Shown: in pieces, positions 31,080-46,914 of the stretch
How the letters are laid out: the number at the start of each line of letters is the position of its first letter
Position numbering within the stretch: the stretch's first letter is position 1
DNA from: an uncultured bacterium
Lineage (GTDB): Bacteria > Oederibacteriota > PGYV01 > CAWJRG01
Length of the DNA stretch: 64,000 nt
Assembly (NCBI GenBank): GCA_963845185.1
Contig: CAWJRG010000009.1
Coordinates: forward strand, 800,001 to 864,000
Reading direction: 5' to 3'
The notes under the pieces: model-generated
Seen by the model: only the letters and a program-made list of their open reading frames with translations
Database searches by the model: none
What the model was told of the DNA's origin: nothing
Position numbers and translations under genes: made by a program

Positions 31080-32705
31080 GACTGTGTCATAAGTCTCCGT
31101 CCACAGCTGATTGCCGTAGGTAAATTAAAAAATCTACAAAATATCCTGTTTTATACAAAAAACCTGCGTGGCCCGATGTTTCTTGCTATCCAAGCTGCGC
31201 AATCAACTCCCTGACACCTACAATGCTTATCATTCGAGCCATATTGAAACAACTTGTGAACAACGCCATCTCAGCTCTTGCTCCTTCAAGCCCTCGCAGC
31301 AGAAACCCGCTTACTCCAAGATTTCTTTTAATATGTCCGAACGGCAACTCTGCTTTCTCTTTTCTCAACTTGAAAATATCCTGCGATTCTTTTGTTTTAT
31401 ATTTTTCTTCAAGCAATATTTTTAGTTCTTCGTTTTTTAGCCTCTTTATCATTCTGCCCTTCGGAGACCGGGTGCATACTCCAAAGTTTTTACATTCTAT
31501 ACAAGCCTTTTCTTCAGTAGACCTATATACTTCAAGATTCTTTTTTTTATCAAAACTATGCCATGTCAATATCTGTCCTTCGGGACAAGTGTAGGTATCT
31601 TTCTCTGAATCGTATTGGAATTTATCTTTCCCAAACGGCCCGATGTCTTTTTTCTCTACCTGTTCCTGAGAAGGTACTATTACATTTATGTCTTTGTCGT
31701 GTATCTTTTTCATTTCTTCTATGCTGGCATATCCGGCATCCCCACACGCATTTTTGCATTTGTTTTCAACTGTTTTCGCCGCTTCTTCAATCTGACTCCC
31801 GAATTGCTTGCGGTCATTGCTTTCGTTTACTACGTCGCTATGCACTATCAGTCCGTGTCTTTCATCTACCACTATCTGCCCGTTATATCCCGCATGCGTT
31901 CCCTGACGCCCTTTTACTTTCACGCATTCCTTGTCTGTCGTATTTATCGACTTTTTCCCCTCGTTCCTTATTTCTTCCATTACCTCTTTTATCTTTGCTT
32001 TTAATTTCTCTTTGCCTCTTAATTTTTCCTTCATCTTTACCAGTGATTCAGCGCCGCTTTCTTCCTCGTCTATCTTTTCGCTCTCCTTTATTATCGCTTC
32101 TATGTTTTCTTCTATCTTCTTTATCCTTTTTTCACACCGCTCCATTGTCCATGTGTTATTTATCGACGCGTTCGCCCTTATCTTGCTCCCGTCTACAAAT
32201 AGCGTGTTTCCTTCTATCAATCCCAGTTTCATACACATCTTTGCGCTTTGTTTCATCACGTTTTTCAACATTTCCCGGTTGTCTTTTCGAAACCTTGCTA
32301 TTGTTTTATGATCCGGCTTCAATCCTCCCAGCAGCCACATAAAAGACACATTATGATGCGTCGCTCTTTCCAGTTTTCTCGAACTTCGTGTCCCGTATGA
32401 ATATCCGTATACCAGCAATTTTATCATAGCCTCAGGGTCGTATTCCAAATTTCCCATTTGCGTTTCATCTATTACTATCCCAAGTTCTTCCATTTTCAAC
32501 GCCTTTACGAACGCGTCGTACGCCCTTACAGGATCATCTTCCCCTACATATTCTTCTATGCTCTGCGGAAACATTGTCAACTGACTTCGGTCTCCATATC
32601 GGTATGCCATTTTTGTCTCCTTTTCTGATGTGTTTTCTGGAGACATTATACCATTTTTTATCTGTCAAATATCGTTTCAGACTACAAAAACATTATGACA
32701 CAGTC
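31080..32705 (-). mobile_element. IS1182-family insertion sequence
   Basis: Terminal inverted repeats GACTGTGTCATAA / TTATGACACAGTC enclosing the transposase. Confidence 0.85.
31186..32610 (-). CDS. IS1182-family transposase
   Basis: YDPEAMIKLLVYGY..G.RSSRKLE, PDHKTIARFR, VDGSKIRANAS, GDAGY, ELPFGHIK; likely start MAYRYG. Confidence 0.9.
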   Translation of the reverse strand: MAYRYGDRSQLTMFPQSIEEYVGEDDPVRAYDAFVKALKMEELGIVIDETQMGNLEYDPEAMIKLLVYGYSYGTRSSRKLERATHHNVSFMWLLGGLKPDHKTIARFRKDNREMLKNVMKQSAKMCMKLGLIEGNTLFVDGSKIRANASINNTWTMERCEKRIKKIEENIEAIIKESEKIDEEESGAESLVKMKEKLRGKEKLKAKIKEVMEEIRNEGKKSINTTDKECVKVKGRQGTHAGYNGQIVVDERHGLIVHSDVVNESNDRKQFGSQIEEAAKTVENKCKNACGDAGYASIEEMKKIHDKDINVIVPSQEQVEKKDIGPFGKDKFQYDSEKDTYTCPEGQILTWHSFDKKKNLEVYRSTEEKACIECKNFGVCTRSPKGRMIKRLKNEELKILLEEKYKTKESQDIFKLRKEKAELPFGHIKRNLGVSGFLLRGLEGARAEMALFTSCFNMARMISIVGVRELIAQLG

Positions 32706-37013: not shown

Positions 37014-37424
37014 CTAAATTTTAAAACGGTCAATTATCCCAAATGTTTTCGCATGATATTCCGAAATTTCGAATGAAATCCCGGGCGTCTTGTTTATATT
37101 CATGCGGATTTTGTCTTGCCTTCTTTCAGCCGATATGTCCGACCACGGTATGAACAACGGCGGGTGAAACGGCCTGGACAGGAAATGCATGTGCACATGC
37201 AACCCATCGCTATCGGCCGTGCCGTAAACAAAGCCGTTGTAACTGAAGAAACGCATTCCTATTGTGGTAATCCGTATCGGCTTGTTTTCGCGTTTCTTGT
37301 CCGGCGGAGTCCTGTAAAGTTCAGTTAGCGTCTTCCACCCTCCGACTGTCGAGCTGACAAACATCGCGATAGGATAAAGAAGGATAACAAGGAAAAAAGA
37401 ATATCTTGCCCAAAAATCATGCAT
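37014..37424 (-). CDS. Hypothetical membrane-anchored protein (copy 1)
   Basis: N-terminal TM segment, HPPLFIPW motif; near-identical to 41402-41815. Confidence 0.75.
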   Translation of the reverse strand: MHDFWARYSFFLVILLYPIAMFVSSTVGGWKTLTELYRTPPDKKRENKPIRITTIGMRFFSYNGFVYGTADSDGLHVHMHFLSRPFHPPLFIPWSDISAERRQDKIRMNINKTPGISFEISEYHAKTFGIIDRFKI

Positions 37425-38470: not shown

Positions 38471-39169
38471 TTAAATTAATTCTTTTCTATCTTTAAACAA
38501 TAAACCTAAATCTTTTTCATAAACGCGAAAACCAGTTCCATGGTTTCTAACAGAACCATTAGGCTTTAAATACATTCTTATATCTACAAAAGCAGATTTA
38601 TTTATAATGGCATCTATAAAATTATCATCCGAAGGATTTTTAAGTAGGTATGCTTTATTATAAAAAAATTCCTCAACGCCGGCCTTATTTTTTTTCACAT
38701 CTGCACAAACAACGATTAACTGGCTCATTTTTGACAAAAATTTTGCGACAATAAAGCTTATTTTCCAATTACCTATAAGTATATTTTTCCTGTCTTTAAG
38801 TTGAAGGTTTCCTTTATTATCTACATCTAATAACAAACCTTGCTTATTAGGTTTTCTATATGAAACTGTAACATACAAACAATGCCGTTTATTTTCATCA
38901 AAATAACCATATTTAGAAATAGCGTCTTTCGGATGAATCTGCCATACGGATTTATTAAAAGTAAAAAGTGTAATAAGGGATGATGAATTCTCTCTCATTG
39001 ATTTTAACTCTATCCTACCGCCAAGGTCAGGAACAGCTATATTGGTTTCTTTAAGATTCAATTCAGATTCAAAAGTATAGCCGATGCCGGTAGGACCTCT
39101 TCTTTTAGAAGGTATAAATCCTTTATCTTTCAAATTTTTTAATCTTTTTTTTAGTTCTACAAGGGTCAT
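38471..39169 (-). CDS. MvaI/BcnI-family type II restriction endonuclease
   Basis: GIGYTFE, ETN...PD, IELKS.R...LITLF, RNHGTGFR, consistent with the MvaI/BcnI PD-(D/E)xK family; adjacent to an m4C MTase. Confidence 0.8.
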   Translation of the reverse strand: MTLVELKKRLKNLKDKGFIPSKRRGPTGIGYTFESELNLKETNIAVPDLGGRIELKSMRENSSSLITLFTFNKSVWQIHPKDAISKYGYFDENKRHCLYVTVSYRKPNKQGLLLDVDNKGNLQLKDRKNILIGNWKISFIVAKFLSKMSQLIVVCADVKKNKAGVEEFFYNKAYLLKNPSDDNFIDAIINKSAFVDIRMYLKPNGSVRNHGTGFRVYEKDLGLLFKDRKELI

Positions 39170-39187
39170 TTCCTCTCCTTTTGGACT

Positions 39188-41080
39188 TTATTTGGGCTTT
39201 TTTAAAATCACTATACTTTCCTTTAACATGGTATCCTCTTTTTGTCCAGCAATATTTGTAGGTGAAGTTTTTAAAGGCATCCTTTTGCCTGGAATATTCC
39301 TTACAAATATATCCTCGCAGCTAAAGCCTATATTTTCGCAAAGTTCCGCTATAATAAAATCAGTTGGAATCCTTACCTGCTTAACAAGGCGGTTTCCAAT
39401 TACAATGCAAAAATATTTATTTACTTTAAGTATTTTATATGCATGCTTAAAACACTTTTCTAAATCAATATAAAAACTTAAAACTTCCCTAGCGCGTTTT
39501 TCATCTTTATTTAATATTTCTTTTAAAATCAAGTCTAAATATTTTGAATTAAGGACATTTTTAAATTCCTTAACTGCTTTTCCGCCGAGCAACTCGTTGT
39601 CCACATTGGAAGCTGTATTTGGGTCTTCAAAAATATCTATCCATTGACTTGATAATCTTGAAAACTGCCCATATGCCACGGTCGTCCTGCTGTCTCCGTA
39701 GGGAGGAGAAGTAATAATACAGTCAATTGAATTTTCCTTTATGCTATTGTCTTTTGAAGAGTCTCCATGTATTATTTTTGCCCAAGTATTTTTATCCACA
39801 TTTTTGTAAAATTCTTCCATTCCCAATATATTTGTTTCAACTTTTTTCTTAAAAATATTAATTACATCCGGATTATAATCTTTTAATTTTTCTTTAGATA
39901 TCTTTACAAGTTTGAATTCTCCGCTTTTTGTGTTGGATACATTCCTTACTATCTCGCTGAAGGCAACCATGAAAAATTTTCTGATATTTCCTTGTTCTAT
40001 TTCATTGATGGCTTTTTTAATTTTAGCTAATTTTAAAATCACGTTTTCTTTAAACCAAAAATCAAGATTAAAAAAATTTGGTTTAGTGATATTTTTATTG
40101 TTAATCTTTTCAATTCTATTAATCAAATTAAAATATTTTTTACTTAATATTGCAGGGTTTATTTCCGTTGCTTTTACTTTCGCTAAAAAAACAGCCAACG
40201 GATTCAAATCAATCCCATAAGCGTTTCTTCCCAACAATCTGCTTTCTACCAAAGCCGTACCCGAACCGCAAAAAATATCGCAAATAGTGTCACCTTTTTT
40301 ACTATAGTTTTGCAACAGCCTTCTTGCTACTTGCGGAATAAACATCGCCGGGTATGTATGCAATCCATGCGTATATGATTTCGTCTTTTCTCCCGAATAA
40401 TCCCATGAATAATCAATCCGCCTCTTATATTTACTTTTGAATGAAGAGCTTTTTTCGGTTTTTTGTTCTAAATTGCGTATTATTTTAACAACAATACCTC
40501 TTATTTCAATTTCTTTTGGATATATTGGGAAAAGTAAAGGATTTGCCGGTTGTAATCTTATTCTATCTTTTTCGCGGTAAATTTTTTTTAAAGTTGCTTT
40601 GTCCTCACCAATGATAGCTACAACAGATTGTCCATTTTCCGCGGTCTCCTGCTTGCGTATTACAACTATATCGCTATCGAAAATCCCCTCATCTATCATG
40701 CTATTGCCCTGCACCCGCAAAGCGAAATATTTCCCTGCTTTACCCAACTCATCTTTCGGAATCGAGATCGTTTCTTGAGAGTTTTCGATTGCGTCAATAG
40801 GTTCACCGGCAGCTATAGTACCCAAAAGAGGAACATCTACTATATCCTTCCCTTTTTGGGAATTTTTGACAATTTCAATACCTCTTGAAATATGGGAATG
40901 TTTTTTTATATAACCCTTTTTTTCTATTGCCATCAGATGGTCTTTAACTGCTGTTGGGGATTTAAAAGAAAATTTCTTACAAATTTCCGAGATGGTAGGA
41001 GGAAATCCATTAATATGGATGTTTCGAACAATGAAATCTAATATTTCTTTTTGTCTTTTTGTTAAAACATTATTTTTCAT
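39188..41080 (-). CDS. LexA repressor fused to an N4-cytosine-type DNA methyltransferase
   Basis: aa 1-205 LexA (LTKRQKEIL, PPTISEI, IAAGEP cleavage site, GNSM Ser, ATLKK Lys); then HTYPAMFIP, DIFCGSGT (motif I), ITSPPY (motif IV); single continuous ORF. Confidence 0.88.
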   Translation of the reverse strand: MKNNVLTKRQKEILDFIVRNIHINGFPPTISEICKKFSFKSPTAVKDHLMAIEKKGYIKKHSHISRGIEIVKNSQKGKDIVDVPLLGTIAAGEPIDAIENSQETISIPKDELGKAGKYFALRVQGNSMIDEGIFDSDIVVIRKQETAENGQSVVAIIGEDKATLKKIYREKDRIRLQPANPLLFPIYPKEIEIRGIVVKIIRNLEQKTEKSSSFKSKYKRRIDYSWDYSGEKTKSYTHGLHTYPAMFIPQVARRLLQNYSKKGDTICDIFCGSGTALVESRLLGRNAYGIDLNPLAVFLAKVKATEINPAILSKKYFNLINRIEKINNKNITKPNFFNLDFWFKENVILKLAKIKKAINEIEQGNIRKFFMVAFSEIVRNVSNTKSGEFKLVKISKEKLKDYNPDVINIFKKKVETNILGMEEFYKNVDKNTWAKIIHGDSSKDNSIKENSIDCIITSPPYGDSRTTVAYGQFSRLSSQWIDIFEDPNTASNVDNELLGGKAVKEFKNVLNSKYLDLILKEILNKDEKRAREVLSFYIDLEKCFKHAYKILKVNKYFCIVIGNRLVKQVRIPTDFIIAELCENIGFSCEDIFVRNIPGKRMPLKTSPTNIAGQKEDTMLKESIVILKKPK

Positions 41081-41107
41081 TTAATCAAGCCTCGTTCAAT
41101 TTTTTTG

Positions 41108-41136
41108 ATTATACTGTATAAAAATACAGTTGTCAA
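41108..41136 (-). promoter_or_regulatory. Consensus promoter with a CTGT-N8-ACAG (SOS-box-like) operator in its spacer
   Basis: Minus strand TTGACA-ACTGTATTTTTATACAG-TATAAT; palindrome at 41114-41129. Confidence 0.85.
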
Positions 41137-41401: not shown

Positions 41402-41815
41402 TTAAATTTTAAATCTGTCAATTATCCCGAATGTTTTCGCATGGCTTTCCGAAATTTCAAATGAAATCCCGGGTGTCTTGTTTATATTCATGCGGATTTT
41501 ATCTTCCCTTCTTTCAGCCGATATGTCCGGCCACGGTATGAACAACGGCGGGTGAAACGGCCTGGATAAAAAATGCATGTGTACATGCAGTCCGTCGCTG
41601 TCTGCCGTGCCGTAAACAAAGCCATTGTAACTGAAGAAACGCATTCCTATTGTGGTAATCCGTATCGGCTTGTTTTCGCGTTTCTTGTCCGGCGGTGTCC
41701 TGTAAAGTTCAGTTAGCGTCTTCCACCCTCCCACTGTCGAGCTTACAAACATCGCGATGGGATAAAGAAGGATAACAAGGAAAAAAGAATATCTCGCCCA
41801 TAAATCATGCATCAT
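41402..41815 (-). CDS. Hypothetical membrane-anchored protein (copy 2)
   Basis: Differs from 37014-37424 at only a few residues. Confidence 0.75.
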   Translation of the reverse strand: MMHDLWARYSFFLVILLYPIAMFVSSTVGGWKTLTELYRTPPDKKRENKPIRITTIGMRFFSYNGFVYGTADSDGLHVHMHFLSRPFHPPLFIPWPDISAERREDKIRMNINKTPGISFEISESHAKTFGIIDRFKI

Positions 41816-45022: not shown

Positions 45023-46914
45023 CTTTTATAACCTCCTTTGGTTACTTAATGCCCCTCTCAGAACCGAACGTGACCGTTTCGGTCATTCGGCTCCACGGGA
45101 ATACTTCCTAATACGATGACAGCGAATAGGTTAAATGATATATCCTGGGTTCCGGCAATGGGTTGTATCTTAGAAAGCGGCAAAACTGTTCCCAGTTGTA
45201 ACTTCTTTTCTGGCTTCGCCTGTTTATCCATTTATAGGCGAGCGCACGATTTCTCCAGTAGAATTTTGTTATTTGGGGCATATTACCGCTTATCCCGTAA
45301 TAATTGTAGTGGCCCGTTAACTTTCTTCCTAATGCCTGCCACCACTGTTTTAATTCCACAAGATTTCTTACGCTCTTTAGCCAGAAGTTCGTCGCCTTCA
45401 TCTTCTGTTTGAATTTTGTACTTGCCGTCCTTCGGCCTAATTTGAAGCCGCCCTTTCTGGTTTTGTCGCAGTAATGAGTAAACCCGAGGAAATCAAAGGT
45501 CGGAATTTTCCCGCCTGTATCTTTGGACTTATACCAGGCGTGGCGCCCGAATACGATTATTCTCGATTTATCTTTGGCGATTTTGAGGCCAAACTTATCA
45601 AGCCTCTGTCTTAACATTTCGCCAAACTCCTTTGCTTCGCTGTCATATTGGAACAGCACAACAAAGTCATCGGCATAACGTATCAGACTGGCGTATCCTT
45701 TGAGCTGTCTCTTGACATGCCTTTCGAACCACAGGTCTAATATGTAGTGTAGGTAGATGTTCGCCAGTAATGGGCTTAGTATTCCGCCCTGCGGCGTCCC
45801 TTTATCCGTTTCGATAAACTTACCTTCTTCCATAATCCCTGCATTTAATATCCTGCCGATTAACCTTATCAGGTTTGTATCGGCAATCCTTTGCGTAAGG
45901 CATTTCATTAGCCATTTGTGGTTTATGGTATCGAAAAACTTCTCAATGTCCATATCCACTACTGCGTTGACTGGCTTTGTCATTACTTCCTTATCCAGAA
46001 TTTTCAATGCCTGATGACAATTTCTGTCAGGCCTGAACCCGTAAGATACTTCGCTGAAGTCTACCTCAAAGATTGACTCAAGAATTTTCTTTACCCCCAT
46101 CTGGATTATCTTATCCTCGACGGCAGGTATTCCCAGCGGCCTCTTGTCTCCGTTTGTCTTGGGGATGTAGACGCGCCTTGTTGGTTGCGGTATGTATCTC
46201 CACGCCTTCATCCTATTGATTAAATCCTTGATATTTGCCTCTTTGTTGACTTCATATTCCTCTATCCTTACTCCGTCAATGCCCGGGGCTTTGTCCTGTT
46301 TTAACTCCCCAAAGCACTCCATTAGAAACTCCTCATTGAGCAGGTGTATCAGCGATGTAAATCTCAATTTTGGATTTTCCTTTGCCCGCATTGTTATGGT
46401 CATAAGTTTTGTTGCCATTCCGTCTCCACCTCTGTGTGTGGCGGTTGTCTCCCTTATGTCCATACGCATTCCCTCTATCCCCTTTCTCCATCTACTTTCG
46501 TAGACTTCATCGATACTATGGGATAGTCAGACTGCCGGAACATCTTTTGCGGCTCCTTATCTTTTAGGATTTGTCGCCGCATACTCTCGTTTTGAGGGTG
46601 TCCCGGCTCTCCCGAGTTCATATCTGCTCCTTGACATCTTGACACGGACTTAGACCCCGTCGGATTCCCACTCTCTCGCCTTTTTATGATTGTGGGACTG
46701 CTGCCTGCTCTTTTATGAAAAATGTCGGCCTCCGACACGTTGGCGATTTCGGGGCTCAATACCTTCACTTGCGTTGTATCCCGATGTCTCCCGCCTTCCA
46801 GCTTCATTTAGCTCGTTGCCTCACTATTTGTGGAATTTGGTATTGGGCTGGCGGCTGACCTTTGCCCAGGCTGGACTTTCACCAGCGCGAACCGATACGC
46901 TTTTCTCGGCGCAC
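45010..46914 (-). mobile_element. Group II intron copy 2 (1905 nt)
   Basis: Matches copy 1 wherever compared, except one T fewer near 46483 (domain III region); GTGCG at 46914; domain V at 45061-45093. Confidence 0.93.
45108..46418 (-). CDS. ltrA: Group II intron reverse transcriptase/maturase (copy 2)
   Basis: Protein identical to copy 1 from MATKL to the stop. Confidence 0.93.
   Translation of the reverse strand: MATKLMTITMRAKENPKLRFTSLIHLLNEEFLMECFGELKQDKAPGIDGVRIEEYEVNKEANIKDLINRMKAWRYIPQPTRRVYIPKTNGDKRPLGIPAVEDKIIQMGVKKILESIFEVDFSEVSYGFRPDRNCHQALKILDKEVMTKPVNAVVDMDIEKFFDTINHKWLMKCLTQRIADTNLIRLIGRILNAGIMEEGKFIETDKGTPQGGILSPLLANIYLHYILDLWFERHVKRQLKGYASLIRYADDFVVLFQYDSEAKEFGEMLRQRLDKFGLKIAKDKSRIIVFGRHAWYKSKDTGGKIPTFDFLGFTHYCDKTRKGGFKLGRRTASTKFKQKMKATNFWLKSVRNLVELKQWWQALGRKLTGHYNYYGISGNMPQITKFYWRNRALAYKWINRRSQKRSYNWEQFCRFLRYNPLPEPRIYHLTYSLSSY

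Follow-up and report, generated by a model that had tools for sequence, protein, structure and literature searches.

Can a restriction-modification (R-M) system draw on DNA damage for its own control? The question is raised by a two-gene cassette in a 64,000-nt stretch of DNA from an uncultured bacterium of the GTDB lineage Oederibacteriota (GenBank assembly GCA_963845185.1, contig CAWJRG010000009.1, positions 800,001 to 864,000), hereafter the window. One open reading frame (ORF) of the cassette joins a LexA repressor to a DNA methyltransferase, and a restriction endonuclease gene follows. C proteins and autorepression by the methyltransferase are the usual explanations of how Type II systems become established in new hosts and spare their own chromosome while it is repaired, and neither senses damage; a RecA-sensing repressor inside the methyltransferase would, if this reading is true, amount to direct feedback from self-cleavage to self-protection. 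The locus is likely to be a mobile Type II R-M cassette with a LexA-controlled methyltransferase promoter, and it is a real regulatory variant of Type II R-M that has apparently not been described.

An earlier sequence-only reading had described the fusion, an endonuclease 18 nt beyond it, a perfect TTGACA-17-TATAAT promoter with CTGT and ACAG in its spacer, and an AT-rich block, and each of these was confirmed. The gene pair is supported by ORFs, by Pfam domains (LexA_DNA_bind at amino acids (aa) 5-67, Peptidase_S24 at 84-198, and N6_N4_Mtase) and by motifs (IAAGEP at 89, GNSM at 125, ATLKK at 162, FCGSG at 270, SPPY at 458). The promoter spacer, ACTGTATTTTTATACAG, is 17 nt long and lies in the only site scoring 12/12 among 13 promoter-like matches between 38200 and 41450. 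The block has a GC content of 0.315 (genome, about 0.42), and 32 of 1307 tiles of the same size reach so low a value.

Operator, recognition helix and the host SOS system

The operator was compared with the recognition helix in 95 distinct promoters of LexA-methyltransferase fusions. The palindrome lies in the promoter spacer at 6/6 loci with an SPTAV helix and at 0/89 others. A direct repeat is found in 79 of those 89 promoters, mostly between -35- and -10-like hexamers, with a background of 2.6% in shuffles and 4.5% in random windows. Helices of the type T[AS]H[YF] are accompanied by TTCTA (51) or TTCGA (4) repeats in 55 of 59 promoters, and those of the type T[IVA]H[EQK]H by TTCGG repeats in 18 of 23. 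These counts overstate independence, because the repeat pattern was defined after inspection of the promoters counted here and because numerous loci are closely related, a point that weighs against the reading. It would be difficult to account for three matched classes of helix and operator if the fused head did not read the site. Repression of its own promoter by the fused LexA, which had been proposed from this one locus, is highly probable in view of this co-variation. A direct-repeat motif has been published for LexA of Patescibacteria, as cited in PMC7739468 (this and the other papers cited by number are represented here by excerpts).

In the lineage of the cassette, the 29-mer promoter is almost fixed, with no more than 2 changes across 6 distinct loci, and the flanks differ. 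The host genome (3.5 Mb) holds 43 copies of plain CTGT-N8-ACAG, which is thus not rare on its own; the longer palindrome ACTGTAT-N4-ATACAGT has a single copy, with 0 one-mismatch and 12 two-mismatch sites.

The upstream sides of the direct-repeat promoters (L018-L097) are highly variable. In 57 of 70 loci the closest gene on that side runs divergently, and the genes found there include SEC-C, SMODS, AAA_21, DUF4238, GIY-YIG, DUF2188 and housekeeping genes. Many of these promoters also contain a divergent TTGAC and a DnaA-box-like GTGGATAA element, so the operator may control cargo genes as well.

The sequence-only reading had called the box E. coli-type and suggested looking for it at recA and uvr genes. 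It is not the SOS box of the host. At C9:884095-884679 the host encodes a lexA of its own, which differs in its helix, bears an AGAAC-N4-GTACT site and precedes a gene resembling dinB by eye (both genes together, G000:C9:882554-884679). The genome scan found the palindrome only at the cassette promoter; it is absent at recA, and no multi-gene SOS regulon including recA is under the control of the fusion. Among 24 upstream regions of recA, the palindrome occurs in 0 and the direct repeat in 3, near background. A further element, TAGCACATTTGTGCTA, is found in the lexA promoter of relatives (L007, L012, L013, L015) and is a candidate SOS box of the group; the host recA holds only a half site.

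Because the host carries a distinct lexA whose box differs, the cassette is best described as a private one-operon switch and not an SOS master. That the fusion is nevertheless the master SOS repressor of its host, with a hitch-hiking methyltransferase, is very improbable. It does score above the lexA equivalog cut-off, and it is the sole LexA match in 14 of the 50 carrier genomes searched, which are incomplete; the distinct host lexA and dinB-like gene, the uniqueness of the palindrome, the recA regions and the presence of up to four separate LexA fusions in single genomes all argue against such a role.

The two halves of the fusion are read as one protein. A separate methyltransferase start at the junction was rejected, the first in-frame ATG, GTG or TTG past codon 185 being codon 240, and a Met within aa 200-235 is present in 15 of 120 relatives. 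The AlphaFold model has a mean predicted local distance difference test (pLDDT) score of 79, with separate domains and a low-confidence linker, and a fold search returned only LexA and generic methyltransferases. The features are collected in Table 1.

Table 1. Features of the LexA-methyltransferase cassette, in window coordinates
Feature	Coordinates	Strand	Remarks
LexA-methyltransferase fusion ORF	39188-41080	-	630 aa
Endonuclease ORF	38471-39169	-	232 aa, 18 nt past fusion ORF
Sigma70-type promoter TTGACA-17-TATAAT	41108..41136	-	-35 TTGACA 41136-41131, -10 TATAAT 41113-41108
Palindromic operator ACTGTAT-N4-ATACAGT (includes CTGT-N8-ACAG)	41113..41130	.	Fills promoter spacer; predicted
LexA winged-helix DNA-binding domain, aa 5-70	40871..41068	-	PF01726; recognition helix KSPTAVKDHL
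LexA S24 self-cleavage/dimerisation domain, aa 83-203	40472..40834	-	PF00717, TIGR00498
A91-G92; S127; K165	40805-40810; 40700-40702; 40586-40588	-	Within S24 domain
Flexible linker, aa 204-219	40424..40471	-	pLDDT <50 at 204-215; no in-frame start codon
Amino-methyltransferase domain, M.MvaI-like, predicted N4-cytosine	39188..40423	-	FCGSG before SPPY; PDLC03322
MvaI/BcnI-family restriction endonuclease	38471..39169	-	PF15515; co-directional with fusion; own ribosome site AGGAGAGG

Predicted self-cleavage and its proposed purpose

The LexA part was expected to be complete and competent for cleavage, and comparison supports this. The lexA model TIGR00498 matches aa 5-204 with 206 bits (cut-off 110.95). 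The scissile bond A91-G92 and the dyad S127 and K165, which align with A84-G85, position 119 and K156 of E. coli LexA, are invariant in 219/219 proteins (120/120 and 99/99 in two sets), against just 26 of 121 invariant S24 columns in the 120-protein family. Across six members of the lineage, S24 has a nonsynonymous-to-synonymous substitution ratio of 0.07, the DNA-binding domain one of 0.12 and the methyltransferase one of 0.05, values that are rough because synonymous sites are near saturation. The six LexA positions that form the pocket for RecA F203, as named in the excerpt of bioRxiv 10.1101/2023.10.30.564768, map to L86, I89, F119, L121, V154 and A162, and the residues there are small or hydrophobic across the family. 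The host RecA carries a GVMFG loop with the key Phe matching F203, and recA is present in the host and in 28 of 30 carrier genomes searched.

The fusion shares with LexA of E. coli and P. aeruginosa the domain order, the Ala-Gly site, the Ser-Lys dyad, hydrophobic residues at the RecA pocket positions, a CTGT-N8-ACAG box within its own promoter and a similar recognition helix; E. coli LexA would probably recognize the cassette's box. Unlike these proteins it is joined to an enzyme of 410 aa, has a single operator in its genome and lives beside a host lexA; identity of the S24 domain is 37% with E. coli LexA and 65-75% with most fusions that are predicted to bind direct repeats.

Several observations weigh against cleavage stimulated by RecA. 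The charged RecA contacts E95 and E189 of E. coli LexA are replaced by Q102 and R194 in the fusion, the RecA-contact positions K135 and D151 vary within the family, and with 410 aa attached to its C-terminus LexA might fit less easily into the groove of RecA. Archaeal labels are attached to three carriers, and archaea are not known to have bacterial RecA; these labels may be binning errors. With hydrophobic pocket positions and the catalytic residues kept, RecA-stimulated cleavage of the fusion is still considered probable.

A simpler view is that LexA serves here for autorepression and dimerisation alone, like the helix-turn-helix (HTH) domain of SsoII-type enzymes, and that cleavage is a leftover with no physiological role. 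R-M systems are known to use autorepression through an HTH at the N-terminus (PMC3874152), and the charged RecA interface differs in part. Headless versions also persist (L098:10-1707; P0013): they have lost the DNA-binding domain in frame, with S24-methyltransferase left beside an intact endonuclease, so LexA regulation is dispensable. Invariance of the scissile bond and dyad across 10 methyltransferase clusters, in a domain where most columns vary, and a RecA pocket that stays hydrophobic make this view unlikely. In M.SsoII and M.Ecl18kI, according to the same excerpt, the methyltransferase has a DNA-binding domain at its N-terminus and an operator that overlaps its own promoter, an arrangement also seen in the fusion with its predicted operator. 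The domain of the fusion differs in being a whole LexA with a self-cleavage protease and a possible damage input; in addition, the enzyme attached to it is an amino-methyltransferase, the R gene follows the M gene in the same direction, and the module is found on many methyltransferase families. Divergent R and M genes with facing promoters, the Ecl18kI arrangement, are not found, the cassette genes being co-directional. Ecl18kI-type methyltransferases form 5-methylcytosine (m5C), and the SPPY motif of the fusion is that of an amino-methyltransferase.

Which genes would be released by cleavage depends on gene order. The sequence-only reading had both genes derepressed, and this can hold only for the small lineage in which they are co-directional. 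Eleven metagenome loci contain this endonuclease, nine of them at 73% identity or more, and in 9/9 of the latter the methyltransferase lies directly upstream on the same strand; seven (5 distinct) have a whole LexA and the box, one is headless, and the ninth is truncated. A fragment and an unfused relative at 46% make up the eleven. Spacing between the two genes in the lineage is -1 to 19 nt. Among related loci with a detectable endonuclease, that gene is on the opposite strand (convergent) in 60 of 61, which makes co-induction of the endonuclease lineage-specific, and 26 of 55 scorable ones have a C-like HTH gene of their own. The target of LexA control that is conserved throughout the family is, on these gene orders, the methyltransferase.

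Taken together, autorepression with release triggered by activated RecA, acting as a self-protection feedback, is moderately favoured as the explanation of the cassette. In a newly entered cell, the consensus promoter would be free of repressor and yield methyltransferase first; fusion dimers would then bind the palindrome and damp transcription. Filaments of RecA on single-stranded DNA (ssDNA), arising from damage or from cutting by the own endonuclease at under-methylated host sites, would trigger cleavage at A91-G92. The DNA-binding head would be freed, the S24-methyltransferase fragment would still methylate, and transcription would rise, so that DNA damage would be followed by more methyltransferase and, in this lineage, more endonuclease. 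Self-protection is the likeliest purpose because most cassettes put only the methyltransferase under LexA; for the same reason, the simplest purpose would be re-methylation of sites bared by repair or self-cutting. Loss of a methylase is reported to give an SOS-like profile in a mycobacterial system (excerpt of PMC7647400). Induction of the endonuclease as well in this lineage fits self-protection less neatly and counts against it. Type I restriction alleviation (excerpts of PMC12707154 and PMC11109961) also shields the host at unmethylated sites arising from repair or recombination. It does so by proteolysis of the restriction subunit, whereas raised transcription of a Type II methyltransferase is proposed here.

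Two other purposes were considered. The first is an abortive outcome, in which the cleaved S24-methyltransferase is degraded or inactivated, the host is left unprotected, the endonuclease persists or rises, and the damaged or infected cell dies. The fusion links the fate of the methyltransferase to cleavage, E. coli proteases act on fragments of LexA, and the endonuclease lies within the derepressed operon of this lineage. Covalent linkage is not needed, however, since at L049 the LexA lies unfused upstream of the methyltransferase; a headless S24-methyltransferase exists beside an intact endonuclease at L098, and derepression would resupply the methyltransferase. Cell death of this kind is accordingly rated as quite improbable.

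The second, slightly less improbable yet still doubtful, is that the main purpose is to boost anti-phage restriction upon infection or damage, with methyltransferase induction secondary. Damage-responsive immune regulators of this kind are known: CapH+CapP, CapW/BrxR and CapK+CapS (excerpt of PMC13373217) are likewise local repressors beside immune genes, released on damage. The endonuclease of this lineage is co-directional and tightly spaced, and some of the divergent genes upstream of direct-repeat promoters are defence-like (SMODS, AAA_21, DUF4238, GIY-YIG). On the other side, 60 of the 61 related endonucleases lie outside the LexA transcript, many divergent neighbours are housekeeping genes or unmatched, and no divergent gene lies upstream of the fusion in this window. 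The Cap regulators, as far as the excerpt describes them, bind ssDNA directly as separate proteins, whereas the fusion would use RecA and self-cleavage inside the enzyme. The separate HTH repressor and ssDNA-activated peptidase of CapH+CapP are replaced by one polypeptide with an S24 serine-lysine domain. In Thermus prophages, R-M genes have been reported behind LexA-like phage repressors, unfused (excerpt of PMC11437467).

A portable module with a probably swapped head

LexA-methyltransferase cassettes are common in uncultured groundwater lineages. The survey of databases that had been proposed found all three domains in 119 of the 120 best homologues, which were examined out of 6340 scored matches; the remaining one was without the DNA-binding head. 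A genome scan gave at least 562 confirmed stretches, of which 80 loci were kept, mostly from Patescibacteria, with Omnitrophota, Elusimicrobia, WOR-3 and others. The fused ORF was seen in 79 of these 80, and an assembly artefact was ruled out by its recurrence in independent assemblies.

The module is not confined to one kind of enzyme. A LexA search of 50 of the 80 carrier genomes gave 14 further long LexA ORFs, plus one in a host relative. Their C-terminal parts were methyltransferases in 9/9 scanned, including an m5C enzyme (L148), and 7 of 14 neighbours matched endonuclease models (E<=1e-12). A LexA profile search in longer proteins gave 4486 matches; the best 120 all carry a methyltransferase Pfam domain, and 99 new proteins among them fall in 10 methyltransferase clusters. 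The LexA module thus heads at least 10 methyltransferase clusters. These many clusters, together with the unfused LexA placed directly before a methyltransferase at L049, indicate that the unit is a portable control module for methyltransferases, made of LexA plus promoter. A broader view is that this portable, self-cleaving LexA cassette constitutes a third general way of R-M control, next to C proteins and HTH-methyltransferases, that would sense cuts made by the system itself through RecA and respond with more methyltransferase, serving N4-methylcytosine (m4C), N6-methyladenine (m6A) and m5C enzymes and swapping head and operator together; it is advanced tentatively, at a little under even chances. 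The same tentative standing applies to its corollaries, orthogonality to the host SOS system and to other cassettes of the same cell, and, in the present lineage, a swap to an E. coli-type box with the endonuclease under the same switch. The natural series of operators and helices would be a source of orthogonal damage-inducible switches.

Several variations were observed within the family. Single small genomes hold up to four different LexA-methyltransferase fusions (L142-L144 with L038, genome G057), and two lie on one contig at L047. A genome of the host's order (G016) contains a DPPY-type LexA-methyltransferase with a direct-repeat operator and a convergent endonuclease (L157). At L022, L074, L081, L088 and L089, unrelated convergent ORFs replace or join the MvaI-type endonuclease, and neither of the two scanned, from L022 and L089, matched PADLOC at E<=1e-12. 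Two tandem LexA-type DNA-binding domains are present in several proteins with lengths of 150-350 aa (P0248-P0259).

The present lineage has probably acquired its DNA-binding domain and operator together from a stand-alone LexA. Its DNA-binding domain is 33% identical to those of the fusion relatives, compared with 55% among those relatives, and its S24 and methyltransferase domains are 69% and 72% identical to theirs. Windows of 25 aa starting at aa 21-31 show 60-68% identity to stand-alone LexAs versus 20-40% to two fusion relatives. The closer partner changes near the linker, from stand-alone LexAs before it to fusion relatives after it. The swap is read from the triplet tests, which were significant in 6/6 cases (p 1.6e-11 to 1.5e-5), and from the S24 (FastTree) and methyltransferase trees, which place the lineage inside the direct-repeat cassettes. 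In the tree of the DNA-binding domain the lineage groups with stand-alone LexAs (bootstrap 85-89). Against the swap, an approximately unbiased test on 66 columns did not reject monophyly of all fused DNA-binding domains (p 0.18), and the swap is for this reason likely but not proven.

As to its spread, vertical inheritance was rejected, with a full-length match in 0/40 host relatives; of 98 further genomes from the phylum, a single one yielded a methyltransferase match at E<=1e-60, at 41% in a frame of 457 aa. Viral carriage was also rejected, 3 viral loci having LexA-only matches and viral contigs 0 exact promoter matches, as was plasmid carriage, with 0 full-length matches among 33 plasmid hits.

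No description of a LexA-methyltransferase fusion appeared in titles and abstracts from a full-text literature search, subscription journals and REBASE being outside its reach. The word LexA is absent from the main text of a 2025 review of R-M biology, and a 2013 review of R-M regulation uses it twice, both times on toxin-antitoxin systems.

Predicted target and surroundings

The enzymes of the cassette point to CCWGG as the predicted target, with m4C as the predicted modification. The PADLOC MTase_II model PDLC03322 matches the fusion at E 8e-139, unfused plasmid homologues of the methyltransferase reach 46% identity, and the methyltransferase is described as M.MvaI-like. The endonuclease matches MvaI_BcnI (PF15515) with 127.6 bits (E 1e-36), R.MvaI at E 6e-17 and R.BcnI at E 9e-9. 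Read from the alignment, the MvaI catalytic set E36/D50/E55/K57 is kept 4/4 as E34, D48, E54 and K56. Of the MvaI residues that contact DNA through side chains, for which PMC1874612 served as the structural reference, 8 of 10 are kept, N28 being changed to P and H223 to R.

In the host genome, the observed/expected ratio of CCWGG is 0.80 (rank 3 of 32), and CCSGG is not depleted (1.01). A second R-M pair, unfused, is present in the host at C4:10096-11874, consisting of a 319-aa SPPY methyltransferase and a 269-aa MvaI-like endonuclease, and the argument from CCWGG depletion is weakened because of this second MvaI-like gene. With that reservation, the kept contacts and the depletion agree with the CCWGG-like specificity expected from the family. 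Compared with the Type IIP enzymes MvaI and BcnI (PMC1874612), the cassette has the same endonuclease family, the same catalytic residues and most of the base contacts, with CCWGG and m4C predicted; the difference lies in LexA, since unfused relatives lack it (L107, L193) and none of the 33 plasmid hits spans the whole protein. The cassette is easy to test, being 2.7 kb long with two genes, one operator, a consensus promoter and CCWGG as its predicted target.

Elsewhere in the window, a reverse transcriptase (RVT_1; group II intron-like by eye) at 45108-46469 and a transposase-like ORF (by eye) at 31186-32646 had no visible link to the cassette. An unknown gene of 136-137 aa is present in two 93%-identical copies, at 37014-37424 and 41402-41815, that bracket the cassette and a repeat lipoprotein-like gene; as candidate cassette ends these copies were rejected, since they do not define ends. 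Further duplications are present in the window at 29.7-31.0 kb and 34.3-35.6 kb.

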